Positions 1,927 through 63,922 of a DNA stretch of 64,000 nucleotides are shown in pieces. Position 1 is the stretch's first letter, and each line of letters begins with the position of its first letter. This DNA comes from Octopus vulgaris (lineage: Eukaryota), in assembly GCA_951406725.2 (NCBI GenBank), contig OX597824.1, forward strand, positions 52,390,001 to 52,454,000, written 5' to 3'. The position numbers and the translations under genes are program-made. The notes below the pieces were generated by a model, which saw nothing but the letters and a program-made list of their open reading frames with translations, made no database searches and had not been told where the DNA came from.

Positions 1927-1971
1927 TCTAGGCCGATGAAGGACAACGATCCTGAAACACGTGTCCCTAGA
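1927..1971 (+). ncRNA. Type I hammerhead ribozyme motif (U4C core variant)
   Basis: TCTAGG-CCGATGA-AGGA caacga TCCT-GAAA-CACGTG-TC-CCTAGA: 6-bp stem I, 4-bp stem II, palindromic stem III and a GUC cleavage triplet. Confidence 0.8.
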
Positions 1972-3749
1972 TGCAGTTTCGGTAGCCGGGGTGTTTGTCT
2001 CCCCTTCGTATATGTATATAAGGACACAGGGAAAAATGTGTCAAAGCCATCAGGAGGCGTTCGATGCTTCCTAGGGCTATACAGCGGTGGTGTACCCCCT
2101 ACTGTCACGTTCTTGTTAGATTGACAGTATACAACCATTCTATATATATATATATATATATATATATATATATATATATATATACAGATAGATAGCAGGT
2201 AGGCACCTTGTGTACCCTTATGATAAATATAAATTTTAATTCTATAGCTATCTAATGTTTTTAAGGCCTTCAACCACCTACATTATTGTTGTTATTATCA
2301 ACTATTTATAATTACCGCAGATAGAAATAACAATAATAATATATATATAAATATTCACTTATGAATATTTACTCCTTATTAGTATATTTGCACTGAAGTG
2401 GTTCTGATTTAGGCGCAAAATAATTCAGAACGCCGGCAGACTTCAACGTGAGTAGTGAAACATTTTTACCGCCAGAACTAGAAATCATGGTCCAAGTGTA
2501 TCCAAATGCCAAAATAGGATATCTAGCATTGGGCTGTATTCAGTATGCTAAATTTATTTGACCCGTTCGCCTGCATGCGGTTGCTTTTCTGTTTAATTAT
2601 TCAGTGTTATTGGTGGTTTAACTAAGAGTTTTTGCTCTTCTTTGTAGCAGGTAAGTACCTTGTGTGCCTTGTTATATGTATATATATAAACTCACATGAA
2701 TACACACACACACAAATGTAAACACATACATAAACACACCCTCACATTTATATAAAAGATAGATAGACAGATATGGTATCTTCAATATACATATTTCACC
2801 AAAAATTTTCTTGAATGAAGCAAATTAAGGTTCTATAGGCAAATCTCCAGACACTATATAGTTTACAAATATTTGCTTTAAAATCTGAACAATTGAACAA
2901 CAACAATATCAGTAACAGCTCCAACAAACTTACAGATTTTACAATAGAAGTTAAACCAATCAACAAAGGGATTAAAATAATCAGAACTGGTCCAAAGAAA
3001 CAGTGCATTTTAAGACCGTTCTTATGAATTTCCATATTTCATGAGTAACTCATATTTACATATATTTCATGTTCCTGGATACCATCAAATACAATGATAT
3101 TCATAGGTGAGAGAGAGAGAGAGAGAGAGAGAGTAAGTGAGAGTGAGAGAGAGAGAGAATGAGTTCTTTTTATAAAATACAGTGAACTCATACACAGAGG
3201 CACCACACTTATAAATAACCCCAAATTCCATAGATTTATCTATATATGTAAATATCAATATGGATAGTTATAAAAATAGATAATAACACAGGGATATATA
3301 CACACAACACAAGCATGCTAAGATGTGTGTTTGTGTGTCAGTATATGAATGTGTATATAAACATACATATCTATAACATATATAAAATAACACACACATG
3401 TATAATGAGAAAGGGAGGGAGAGAAAGATCTGAGGTAGGAGAAAAAGATAAAATATATATTTACTGTTGTATGAATTGTATTGTTTTGTATTCTATTTTT
3501 CTACTTAATGTTGACAAGTATATCTCTTAATTCGGCAGTTGCCATAGCAACGTTCCAGAGAAATGTGTCATGTTTATTCGTTTTCCAAGGAATACACACA
3601 CTCACACATAATGTATATATACACGTAGATTGATAGATAGATAGATAGATAGATAGATAGATAGATAGATAGATAGATAGATAGATAGATAGATAGATAA
3701 AACTATCTCACGATATATATATATATACATACATAAATATATATATATC

Positions 3750-4033
3750 ACCGTGACCGACCAGGCTATCAGATGTTGCTACACATCGCTGGTCACAATG
3801 CGCTTCGCATTGTTTTAGCCTTCAAATGACGCCACCCCGCTGGCTAAGTGAGCAGGCCAACAGAAGAAAGAGTGAGAGAAAGTTGTGGCGAAAGGGTACA
3901 GCAGGGATCGCCACAAAACCCCGCCGGAGCCGCGTGGAGCTTTAGGTCTTTTCGCCCAATAAACACTTACAACGCCCGGTCTGGGAATCGAAACCGCGAG
4001 TTCGCTGCCCTAACCACTGGGCCATTGCGTCTC
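3750..4033 (-). mobile_element. tRNA-derived SINE (same head as 46562 copy)
   Basis: The reverse strand starts GGAGACGCAATGGCCCAGTGGTTAGGGCAGCG..GGTTTCGATTCCCAGACCGGGCG, with A and B boxes. Confidence 0.75.
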
Positions 4034-4954
4034 CCACACACACACATACATACATACATACATATATATATATATATATATATATATATATATATATATA
4101 TATATATATATATACACACACACACACATAATATGTTGTAAGTTAACCACCAACACAATCAGCATACTCAGTTAATATTCATAACACATTTAAATATTTA
4201 TTAAAATATAGGTTGCTCTAAATACATCAACTCATGACTTGAAGCCTGACTGTAATTTATTGTGCTGCATCACTACTTCTTTGCTAAATCTTATTTATTC
4301 TAACTGCACTAACTCTCTCTTGAGAGATCTACCTCCGATCCATGATGATCGATCCATCAGCTCCAAAATAATTGCTTCATAACTGCAGTCGTTGAAGAAT
4401 ATACATTCAGTTAGTAGCTATTTAGAATCTGTTTTTACGTCGAATCTAAACGACCGATCGAAAACTTTGATCCCTTATTTTGTTCATATTCTCTCGCCTG
4501 ACAGCATACATATCGAGATACTAGCTGAATGACATGGTACGTTTTGTCCAAATTCATACTTGCGCATTCAGAACACCCCTTTCTTTCCAGTCAAATTCGT
4601 GCAACCATCTGAAGAGGTTTGCGAGCTCTTTTAAATACCGTCTGCTATTTGTACACAATCACAATGTACATTGAAAATTCCATTTCAGACACCCAGTATC
4701 ATTAATGAGCGAAAATGCCTCTAGACGGCTGAAAACAATCTGAAGACCTGTATTGGACCGTTGTCTAAACGCGCTGCGTTCGCTGCTGTTCATGTCCAGA
4801 ACTACCCCTTTGCTGTCCACATCCTGGAATATCGCTTGATCTGAATGATGCATATCGCTCGCACTATAAAAGTCTAAATAGCGGCATGAGATCGTTAAAT
4901 AGGTGACAGGGCCTGCATGTGGGTGCAGATCACACGCATTTGCTCAACTAACTT

Positions 4955-61200: not shown

Positions 61201-63236
61201 GGTAGACGTTATTGTATGCACTTGTGCAAACTGCGGCAATGTAATTTTATGTTAATTCTATGAGAGGAACGAGCGGTGATGGTAGGCATCTATACAACTG
61301 AAGGGAAAATTATGTCTGTCAATGTGTTGGGAAGAAGCAGAAATATTTACAGTTTCGAACAGAATGCTTTATCAAGAAATTATTCCTCTTAAAGAAAAAC
61401 TGAATCCGCTGTAATTCCGAAATGTAAAGAAAATGAAAAAAAATTAAAGGCAGCTCTGGATTAATATTAATATCCTGGCAAATGATGACATTATTTCTGA
61501 TCCATGAGATGAGTTGAGATCTGTTTGAGAAGATGGCGCGTGGGGGGGGGATAAATAGGAGATGAATATGTAGTTTAAAAAGACGTTTAAGAAATGAAAG
61601 CAAAAGCAAGAATAGAGAACGACAAAATATGAATGAAAGACCGAAAGAAAATAAAGAAAAATGAAGTAAAAAAGTAAAAGAAAAAAAGGAAAATAGTGGA
61701 AAAGAGAAGAGAAAATGAGAGATATAATGAGGGAACGGATTATGTGAAGAAAAATTGCAAGAAAACGCAAAACGTTTGTAAATACTGAATGGAAAATGTT
61801 AAATAAATAATTAATGAATAAATAAGAATCATATGAAGGATGAGGTTCATAACAGAACAAATATATATGAAGTAAAACCTATGGTAGAGTGAGATTCATT
61901 ACCAAACAAGATTCTGTGCAGATAAAAGCAAAGAAATTTTACTGAGAGAAATTATTATTTGCTAAAAATATTATATGTGTAGGTGTGTGTGCGTGTGTGC
62001 GTGTATGTGTACGTGCATGCGCGTGTGTTTTTCTCTCATACATATACATATCTCTTTCTATATCTATCTGTCTATTTATTTGTTTGTTTATTTATCTAGT
62101 TATCTATCTATCTAACTATCTATCTATCTCCATCTCTCTCTGTGTCTCTCTCACTGTCTCTCTCCCCCTCTCTCTCTCTATATATATATGTATATATACA
62201 TACAAGAATATATACAGATAGATAGATAGACATGCATATATATATACATGTATATATATATGTATGTATGTATATACATATATATATATATATATATGTG
62301 TGTGTGTGTGTGTGTGTGTGTGTGTGTGTGTGTGTGTGTGCGCGTGCGTGTGTGTGTGTGTGTGTGTGTGTGTGTGTGTAGATGTCTCTCGTGCGTTTAT
62401 GCATTTTTCACTCGTGGTGCTCGCTACTTAATAACTATTTTTTATTTATTTATAATTGAACGCCACGCAGCCTTGTCCACTGTAAGTTCTTACATGTATA
62501 TATAATTTCTACGACTCTACACTCTGTTTTCTTTCTTTCTCTCTATCTCTCTATAATCCTTTATATTTCTCGATTTCCCCCTTCTTCTTTGCTGTCTTCT
62601 GTCTGTCTTTCTTCCACTCCTTAATATCTTTTGTTCCTTCTCCCTTCTGTATCCCTTAGTTTCTTTTCCTTATCCTCTCTCTTGTCCCCTTCCTCTCTGT
62701 CTCTTTCTCACCGAGACTACAGGCCATTTCTCTCACCCATGTCTTTACTGAACGTGACCGCCACCGCGCTGGATGTCGTTTCTCTCGCCTCCCGACATTT
62801 TTCTCTTCTACTCTTTACATCTCTTTATTCTATTTCCTTTATGGCGTTACCCATTACAATTCGTCTTGGCCTAACGGCCCATAATGTTCGTCTTCGTTGA
62901 TTGTTTCCTTCCTACATCCACTCTGTTGTTGTTTATTCGTTCGAAGCCCTAATTTTCCACAAGCTTTACATTTTAAAATTTTCTGGATGCTACTGTCTTA
63001 TGAGGTTTTCCTATTTTGACGTTAAAAGCACGAAATGCGTCAGTAAGACAGTTGACAACTGATGAGCGAGTTTTCTTCTGTTATTTTTTCCGTACTAGTC
63101 ACTCGTGTCTTTACGTATTTTCCCCCGTTGGTGATGTCCTGTACTTAATATATATATATATATATATATATATATATATATATATATATATATATATATA
63201 TGTATGTATAAGGGTGAAAAGGAACACACGAGTTGA

Positions 63237-63687
63237 TATATATGAAAAAACAAGTCAAAATAGAAAATGCTAAAATAATTTTATAAAGAACATTTCAGTA
63301 CCGGTTTCAGTCATTTTGAGACCTTTTCAACTGTAACGATTAAATAATTAAATTTAGAAAAATTAAAACAAAAGTTTTTTTAAAGGAATATTTGTAGTGT
63401 TCAAATATAAGTGGCATTGTGCCTTTCTCTGTCTCCCTTGTTTGCACTTGTGTGTTCGGCCTCGAACATACAAGTGCAAGCAAGGGAGACAGAGAAAGGC
63501 ACAATGCCACTTATATTTGAACACTATACAAATATTCCTTTAAAAAAACTTTTCTTTTAATTTTTCTAAATTTAATTATTTAATCATTACAGTTGAAAAG
63601 GTCTCAAAATGACCGAAACCGGTACTGAAATGTTCTTTATAAAATTATTTTAGCATTTTCTATTTTGACTTGTTTTTTCATATATAT
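63237..63687. repeat. ~450-bp palindrome (4-nt loop) with an HHR in each arm
   Basis: The arms meet at GTTCG-gcct-CGAAC (63454-63467) and have few mismatches. Both sides are flanked by (TA)n. Confidence 0.95.
63586..63631 (+). ncRNA. Minimal hammerhead, U3-A8 variant (mirror copy at 63292-63337, minus)
   Basis: ATTACAG-TTGAAAA-GGTC tcaaaat GACC-GAAA-CCGG-TA-CTGAAAT. Confidence 0.75.
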
Positions 63688-63877
63688 AAAATATATATAT
63701 ATATATATATATATATATATATATATATATATATTATATATATATGTATATATATATATTGTTATATTTCGGAATGGTCATATTGCCAGTTTAGCCAATA
63801 AAAACACACGCACTATATATTTGGTGTTATTTTGCTTCAGTGATATTTATTTTTTACATTAATCTTAATCTTATTTC

Positions 63878-63922
63878 GGCCAGAGTTCTTTCTTCACACT
63901 CCTGTGACCTCATCAGTGGTCC
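63878..63922 (-). ncRNA. Hammerhead motif, same family as 22266
   Basis: GGACCA-CTGATGA-GGTCACAggagTGTGAA-GAAA-GAAC-TC-TGGCC. The downstream TTGGCTAAACTGGCAA.ATGAC is shared with 22379-22400. Confidence 0.65.

Follow-up and report, generated by a model that had tools for sequence, protein, structure and literature searches.

Hammerhead motifs of Penelope-like and retrozyme-like repeat families in an Octopus vulgaris locus, with a predicted permuted hammerhead-like fold

Minimal type I hammerhead ribozymes (HHRs) have been described in the pseudo-long terminal repeats (pLTRs) of metazoan Penelope-like elements (PLEs), and non-coding repeats with a type I HHR are known from animals as retrozymes. 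Here we analyse a 64-kb stretch of the 2.8-Gb Octopus vulgaris genome (contig OX597824.1, 52390001-52454000; hereafter the window), which is rich in microsatellites and has a GC content of 37%. A reading of its letters alone (the original prediction) had listed 13 HHR sites and ascribed them to non-autonomous mini-elements. Our best explanation, which as a whole we hold with a probability of roughly 80%, is that each motif marks the 3' end of one of at least 11 repeat families (A to K, Table 1) that adjoin (TA)n and are unrelated to each other or only distantly related.

We compared the locus with the accessible text of the closest published accounts. The PLE pLTR hammerheads of PMC4209133 share with those found here a short or palindromic stem III, an extra base between positions 9 and 10.1 and U3-A8 variants. 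They also occur, like here, mostly in solo copies of truncated PLEs, in opposite-strand pairs 100-700 bp apart and in many families per genome. The C4 cores of families A and E are a difference from that set. Hydra-clade PLEs (PMC8557442) resemble family C in having RWR and DKT motifs, CxCX5C, no CCHH, a canonical HHR and a (TA)n target. One of them, Hydra-1_Obim, with a (TA)n target, has already been listed from octopus, but the family C HHR differs from the motif listed for Hydra-1_oBim. Neptune and Nematis PLEs from the same source, marked by a CX2-5CxxC linker, resemble families B, D and E in their reverse transcriptase (RT), CX4CXXC linker, GIY-YIG endonuclease (EN) and microsatellite bias. 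Families A, G and H are comparable to the animal non-LTR (long terminal repeat) retrozymes of PMC7229834, which are non-coding repeats, a few hundred nt long, that carry a type I HHR; those of mussel measure 350-390 bp, and family A measures 362. According to the accessible text of Li, Clavereau, Pollet 2026 (10.64898/2026.07.22.740005), animal retrozymes are derived from PLE pLTRs and are proposed to be PLE-mobilised, the invertebrates sampled being three insects and one coral. Unlike the retrozymes in these accounts, the elements found here mostly span 0.6-1.9 units, carry PLE footprints (two fixed 3' ends, inverted arms), are known from genomic sequence and include family K, which has 720 nt and a putative permuted fold. 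Though abundant, the swarm is ordinary for PLEs and retrozymes and matches published work. The surprising part might be a core-opened permuted hammerhead, whose copy in the window is decayed and whose cleavage is predicted.

Type I hammerheads and their Penelope-like carriers

Type I cores were sought with a descriptor that allowed C4 and U3-A8 variants, and 100 block-wise dinucleotide shuffles served as background. Seven cores were found in the window (1933+, 22271+, 30445+, 35292-, 35677+, 63330- and 63593+), against a mean of 0.05 and a maximum of 1 in the shuffles. A separate version for a long stem II (45-nt stem II region) added two family F cores (36077- and 36344+), with no match in 98/100 shuffles. 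Both descriptors together give nine intact-looking cores versus ~0.07 per shuffle, a motif frequency clearly above, and not equal to, that of shuffled sequence. All eight sites that had been called clear stand: seven by descriptor, and 63878(-), which the descriptor failed through a mutated C11.1, by its 78% identity to the 22266 family over 104 nt. For each of the five weaker sites (23239, 37044, 37812, 42415 and 62992) the 20 best genomic matches were fetched. The hammerhead layout is present in other genomic copies of the first four, whose window copies are partly decayed; the prediction was right about these and wrong about 62992, which is discussed below. Rfam gave no hammerhead at the gathering score in the window, and none among the best 150 of the 178 rows at E<=10. 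Covariation of the type I core across families was judged from descriptor output; MAFFT could not align different families. Seven families have the predicted palindromic stem III (A, D, E, F, H, I and J), whereas this stem forms a hairpin in family C and has just 1-2 bp in family B. The predicted proximity to (TA)n holds as well: (TA)5 lies within 350 nt 3' of 12/13 cited sites, compared with 16% of random window positions.

The claim of one HHR per 5-8 kb for the whole genome proved to be true only locally. In 60 evenly chosen 10-kb stretches from 28 contigs (600 kb in all), the two short descriptors together detected 20 motifs, versus seven in the window (shuffles 0-2 per descriptor), and the long-stem descriptor six more (shuffles 0-1). 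Homologues of the families seen, including decayed ones, number at least 41 in this sample and 12 in the 64-kb window. With decayed copies counted, this amounts to about 1 per 15 kb genome-wide; the window has about three times this density, and the claim was overstated about three-fold. By extrapolation from 20-26 per 600 kb, the genome holds ~10^5 intact-looking motifs, whereas the accessible text of PMC4209133 reports ~4,000-9,000 in coelacanth and Xenopus, obtained with different descriptors. All fetched loci together (1.67 Mb) contain 279 type I descriptor matches. These form 32 families, of which 15 have several members, and most have a palindromic stem III that differs in sequence.

Families B, C, D, E and J, which account for 8/13 cited sites, are 3' pLTR ends of 5'-truncated autonomous PLEs with their own RT/GIY-YIG. 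This was observed in the 20-30 best genomic matches of each search, fetched with 1.5-kb flanks. In the window, a weak Pfam RVT_1 match (28577-29560) and a GIY-YIG match above the Pfam cut-off (29508-29942) precede the 30440 motif, which lies 500 nt downstream. The same protein is collinear upstream of the HHR in 23/30 family E loci, and the 30440 motif is thus the pLTR of this PLE itself. The original prediction had proposed this RT/GIY-YIG as a plausible mobiliser of the swarm. It is, instead, a truncated and frameshifted copy that owns the 30440 pLTR, and nothing ties it to the other families. Another RT/EN is collinear upstream in 11/30 family D loci, and a GIY-YIG (EN only) lies upstream of the HHR in 9/30 family B and 3/20 family J loci. 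A CX4CXXC linker separates RT and EN in families B, D and E, and family J has a related, decayed EN. By this linker, B, D and E appear to be of Neptune/Nematis type, the assignment not being split between the two clades. The original prediction of at least six unrelated non-coding elements of 200-600 bp fits four of the ten cited families; in five others, PLE coding sequence precedes the motif in other genomic copies. When the 11 window elements were compared pairwise by BLAST, B and J were the only two with similarity to each other.

The family C protein has RWR, DKT and CxCX5C motifs and no CCHH (translations of L020 and L168). It gave no relevant Pfam match and was assigned by these motifs, which place it putatively in the Hydra clade by the criteria in the accessible text of PMC8557442. 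In L032, L040 and L041 the HHR follows the matched RT stretch on the same strand at a distance of 2.9-3.6 kb, and in L170, L180, L185 and L186 (4/25 fetched RT loci) it precedes this stretch by ~1.03 kb, as a 5' pLTR. (TA)5 is present within 350 nt at 24/25 family C loci. The 3' untranslated region is ~3 kb and largely microsatellite-like (L032, L041), which is long for this clade: Hydra elements are generally <3 kb in total, as far as the text of PMC8557442 is accessible. Matches of the L020 tblastn query (residues 434-479) to A, B, G, H, I, J and K loci come from a non-PLE query tail and were discarded.

Two of three presumed RNA runs cover family E at 28607-30500, and one 3,171-nt contig joins its open reading frame (ORF) to the pLTR. 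The neighbouring 26480-28500 has no cover in those two runs, which is only a weak hint of family E transcription. Directly upstream of this PLE, 28110-28575(-) is a decayed coding fragment unrelated to it. We rejected this fragment as an inverted part of the element; it matches no family E locus and encodes something else.

A permuted hammerhead-like fold in family K

The site at 62992 was rejected as a type I core, since the supposed core reads CTTAT/CGA or similar, without G5, in 20/20 copies. Family K shows a different order of blocks: a stem III strand, U-C, a stem I strand, a linker, GAAA, a stem III strand, a spacer, a stem I strand and CUGAnGA. This is the S-G-C order (cleavage site, GAAA, CUGAnGA) of the type-SGC hammerhead (Eckert et al. 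2023, PMC10085705), and we read the motif as a permuted hammerhead. As described in the accessible text of that paper, type-SGC hammerheads further resemble the K motif in a short linker between stems I and II and in a helix joining the far sides of these stems. In type-SGC, however, a stem II strand follows CUGAnGA, whereas in family K it is supplied from 5' of the whole motif. The K motif is not a type-SGC member, because no stem II strand stands directly 3' of CUGAnGA. Published type-SGC examples come from a search of metatranscriptomes, metagenomes and RefSeq, while the K motif resides in an animal repeat.

The core is intact in 38/43 K copies, and GAAA in 33/43. Stems I and III are 87.9% paired among 44 distinct K rows, compared with 32-53% when the strands are slid, and the covariation score was reached by 0/500 shuffles, although related rows inflate this result. 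A strict S-G-C descriptor passes 8 of the first 20 K loci and fails the window copy. We also ran a pairing-blind test, based on spacing only, in 1.6 Mb of non-K loci: 14/78 candidates form at least 9 of 10 pairs versus 0/242 in six shuffles, and these 14 have at least six different stem I sequences.

A canonical stem II right after CUGAnGA was rejected: of 43 K copies, no more than 4 at offset 0 or 6 at offset 1 form 3/3 pairs. The upstream strand pairs with the bases before GAAA to form stem II, and the next upstream bases pair with the spacer to form a linking helix. In K, stem II is 75% and the linking helix 80% paired, versus 18-44% when slid. Against shuffled upstream sequence, these helices stand out at p<=0.025 in 8/14 motifs, among them the window copy (0.025). 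With stem II supplied by the upstream strand, there is a break in the backbone between A9 and position 10.1. At least six families, differing in sequence, share the four-helix layout, and the linking helix is likewise found in other families with other sequences. The 600-kb sample contains nine homologues of permuted motifs, one of them a self-match, which extrapolates to ~4x10^4 copies. Matches in L276 and at L330:9465 look like false positives, and the upstream helices are unsupported in L252 and at 9579. The permuted motif at 9573-9655(-) has six homologues among the fetched loci. An inverted copy of the window K region with 98% identity (L192, G000:C11:52455611-52455791) is located 2.7 kb downstream, outside the window.

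Inspection by eye shows the four helices of this fold (5, 5, 5 and 6 bp) also in the published consensuses Naiad_Ovul and Naiad_Obim, at the 3' end of each. The authors of these consensuses labelled Naiad_Ovul 'HHR_half_core', reported that Naiads have no canonical HHR and described cephalopod Naiads as long inactive. K copies are 78-85% identical, the nearby duplicate excepted, an age that fits this inactivity. No Naiad frame was recognised among the ORFs from K loci, where no Naiad protein was used as a query. Among titles and abstract starts, we found no published description of a core-opened permuted hammerhead, most subscription papers being outside this search.

We interpret 62992 as a decayed copy of a permuted hammerhead fold that is predicted to work like the SGC hammerhead. 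Beyond this, we lean slightly towards the view that family K and at least five other families carry an active core-opened S-G-C hammerhead; it would be the missing Naiad ribozyme, K would be a Naiad-dependent retrozyme, and the topology would be new in the literature searched. Several observations count against the permuted fold or its link to Naiads. One G-C/A-U swap in K divides the rows 19 to 18 and may represent one or two events. Two of five K covariation measures did not beat shuffles. Six of the 14 permuted motifs are not above the upstream shuffle; the best K copy (p 0.30) is among them, as is 9579 (p 0.61). The first stem II pair in K needs a bulged A and is otherwise A-C in 37/46 rows. 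The proposed link between K and Naiads is drawn from only the shared fold and age. An ordinary type I hammerhead in decay, or a layout that arose by chance, would agree with the decay of the window copy and with the few K copies (4-6 of 43) that pair fully at the canonical stem II position, and the strict S-G-C descriptor finds just 2 matches in the random 600 kb versus 0-3 in shuffles. We nevertheless consider this explanation unlikely, given the absence of G5 from 20/20 copies and a four-helix layout shared by at least six families of different sequence and by the published Naiad ends.

ORF-less units and a shared insertion footprint

As judged from their repeat periods, families A, G, H and K are retrozyme-like, ORF-less, circularly permuted units of ~362, 478, 335 and 720 nt, and family F is probably another. 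For these, the predicted system of non-autonomous PLE-derived or retrozyme elements can be retained, whereas B, C, D, E and J are autonomous PLEs. Upstream of the core, family A shows its tail again, with a period of 362-363 nt. Such a direct copy is present in 9/30 loci, in eight of them at 362-363 nt. Family A elements span 0.63-1.91 units, and the longest stop-free frame has 80 aa. A direct copy is likewise found in 8/20 family G loci (six at 476-478 nt, period ~478), plus the window copy itself, and in 7/20 family H loci (310-336, period ~335). Among 45 loci of family K (period ~720), 7 have head sequence upstream and 10 have it downstream. Family F is represented by the window copy and short matches among the fetched loci; a 65-nt direct repeat at offset 493 in this single copy suggests a unit of ~493 nt. 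Two cores one unit apart exist at 2 places among 30 loci for family A, at 2 among 20 for family H and in none of 20 for family G, and the window copies of A, G and H are single. In four presumed RNA runs, contigs cover family A and one bridges the head-to-tail junction; a circle and a genomic tandem are indistinguishable in contigs. For family I, a collinear PLE frame upstream was found in 0/20 loci. In L087, a family E PLE is followed without a gap, at its 3' end, by a family A unit, and the two have a C4 core; this junction may reflect a template jump or an insertion into the TA tail.

Alternatively, all motifs might belong to truncated autonomous PLEs, the units being partial pLTR tandems without any true retrozyme or circular RNA. 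PLEs do form partial tandems, as the accessible text of PMC8557442 describes, and cores at unit spacing are few (2 places each for A and H). We give this alternative little credence, however: what precedes the core in A, G, H and K is the downstream tail of the element itself, repeated at a fixed interval of 335-720 nt, which leaves no room for an ORF, and upstream PLE matches near these families are spurious or, in L087, belong to a separate family E element. Least credible is the idea that all motifs are non-autonomous mini-elements moved by a shared PLE such as that of the window, for which the four or five small ORF-less families and the uncommon C4 core of A and E, which abut in L087, might speak, but which is refuted for B, C, D, E and J, where five families of at least two clades have their own RT/EN, and which sits badly with the truncated, frameshifted state of the window PLE and with the lack of similarity among window elements other than B and J.

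Our preferred reading, distinct repeat families ending at (TA)n, is supported by the way these families end. Both autonomous and small families have two discrete end points, measured from the core (60/130 nt in C, 87/125-129 in D, 170/204 in E, 208/263 in A and 195/280 in G). Inverted upstream copies accompany autonomous families (C 8/25, D 5/30, B 10/30, E 1/30, J 3/20 loci), and inverted 5' partners accompany small ones (A 14/30, H 11/20). Back-to-back family C arms comprise one short-ended and one long-ended arm at 5/5 distinct places. The same pattern is seen at five places in family A; of five others, three are unscorable and two have no clear fit. Three family D pairs are also unscorable, as an internal TA run masks the end difference. 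According to the accessible text of PMC11167929, a purified PLE makes the PLE tail from two internal RT start sites on AT-rich targets.

A possible mechanism is as follows. GIY-YIG would nick TA-rich DNA, as is known for PLEs, and RT would start at an internal position of the RNA, at either of two fixed sites 3' of the ribozyme, producing the two observed ends. RT would usually halt early, leaving the solo pLTR pieces that we see. Both nicked strands may often prime, and such twin priming would give back-to-back arms, one short-ended and one long-ended. Minimal hammerheads are predicted by folding to cut tandem transcripts as dimers via the palindromic stem III; cofolding of two copies predicts a dimeric hammerhead for A, C, D and E. 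The small ORF-less units are likely copied by PLE enzymes, and A, G, H, K and probably F would be retrozyme-like parasites of PLE machinery. Family K, with its rewired hammerhead, likely parasitises Naiad-clade PLEs.

Other results make us cautious. Cofolding of two family B copies predicted no hammerhead dimer. In the random 600-kb sample, (TA) adjacency is weaker than in the window (5/8 within 500 nt versus 32% by chance). Longer ORF-bearing versions of A, G, H, K and I could have been missed in the best 20-30 matches with 1.5-kb flanks. Cleavage, circular RNA and the mobiliser remain at the level of prediction.

Coordinates, neighbouring elements and significance

The feature coordinates are given in Table 1. 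The repeat that hosts the family A copy is one which we take to be SINE-like (short interspersed element). The window contains other elements as well. A 177-nt inverted repeat (25066-25242 / 25319-25495, 94%) has no hammerhead core and no homologue among the fetched loci. A ~190-nt direct duplicate (26560-26740 and 27913-28100) has a minus-strand CTGATGA that fits no descriptor. A non-LTR element with apurinic/apyrimidinic (AP) endonuclease and RT occupies 38200-42003, with a ~580-nt internal duplication and a 773-aa RT frame (RVT_1 E 2e-28). Other non-LTR RT fragments, two of them 96% identical and inverted, lie beside (AAT)n at 14790-16450, 20880-21920 and 46400-50080, and a mariner-type transposase fragment (HTH_48) is found at 43672-44082(-).

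Table 1. Hammerhead-bearing elements and folds in the 64-kb window (window positions)
Feature	Position	Strand	Description
Family A	1910-2143	+	0.65 unit of a 362-nt ORF-less circularly permuted repeat; inserted in a repeat, ends at (AT)n
Family A HHR	1927-1971	+	Type I; CCGAUGA core, palindromic stem III
Second permuted (S-G-C order) hammerhead-like fold	9573-9655	-	Another family; more decayed; ending at (TA)n; absent from the sites of the original prediction
Family B	22225-22476	+	Autonomous PLE 3' end; HHR 22266-22309, extra base between positions 9 and 10.1
Family I	23120-23405	+	Type I HHR, long stem II region, 23239 to ~23341; U16.1 mutated here; inverted tail piece
Family E	28607-30640	+	5'-truncated autonomous PLE; RT then GIY-YIG, frameshift near 29550, 3' pLTR
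Family E HHR	30440-30484	+	CCGAAGA core; element ends at (TA)n
Family C	35163-35740		Two inverted putative Hydra-clade PLE 3' ends between (TA)n tracts; HHRs 35248-35298(-) and 35671-35721(+), one arm ending 60 nt and the other 130 nt past the core
Family F	35754-36563		Inverted pair beside family C; HHRs 36007-36084(-) and 36337-36414(+); missed by the original prediction
Family G	36815-37490	-	~1.4 units of a 478-nt ORF-less repeat; HHR 37056-37108
Family H	37685-38075	-	~335-nt ORF-less repeat; HHR 37811-37862, decayed here, intact in other copies
Family J	42181-43000	-	Autonomous PLE 3' end; U3-A8 HHR 42417-42453, decayed here
Family K	62400-63147	+	~One unit of a 720-nt ORF-less circularly permuted repeat; ends at (TA)n
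Family K permuted, core-opened hammerhead-like fold	62986-63065	+	Decayed copy
K fold, stem II 5' strand	62986-62991	+	
K fold, linking helix	62992-62997 with 63047-63052	+	
K fold, predicted cut	after 63015	+	
K fold, stem I	63016-63021 with 63053-63058	+	
K fold, GAAA	63032-63035	+	
K fold, CUGAUGA	63059-63065	+	
Family D	63210-63685		Two inverted autonomous-PLE 3' ends; U3-A8 HHRs 63295-63334(-) and 63589-63628(+)
Family B, second copy	63760-64000	-	HHR 63878-63921, C11.1 mutated

Autonomous pLTRs and retrozyme-like parasites are found here side by side with identical footprints, which supports the PLE mobilisation of animal retrozymes. In the published view, CUGAnGA and the stem II strand stay contiguous, and the rewired motif of family K would challenge this if it cuts. 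The reported lack of a hammerhead in Naiads has served to argue that the ribozyme is dispensable for PLEs, and the fold, again if cutting, would bear on this argument. If the proposed Naiad ribozyme is real, every EN+ PLE clade of animals would need a hammerhead and would have ribozyme parasites of its own.

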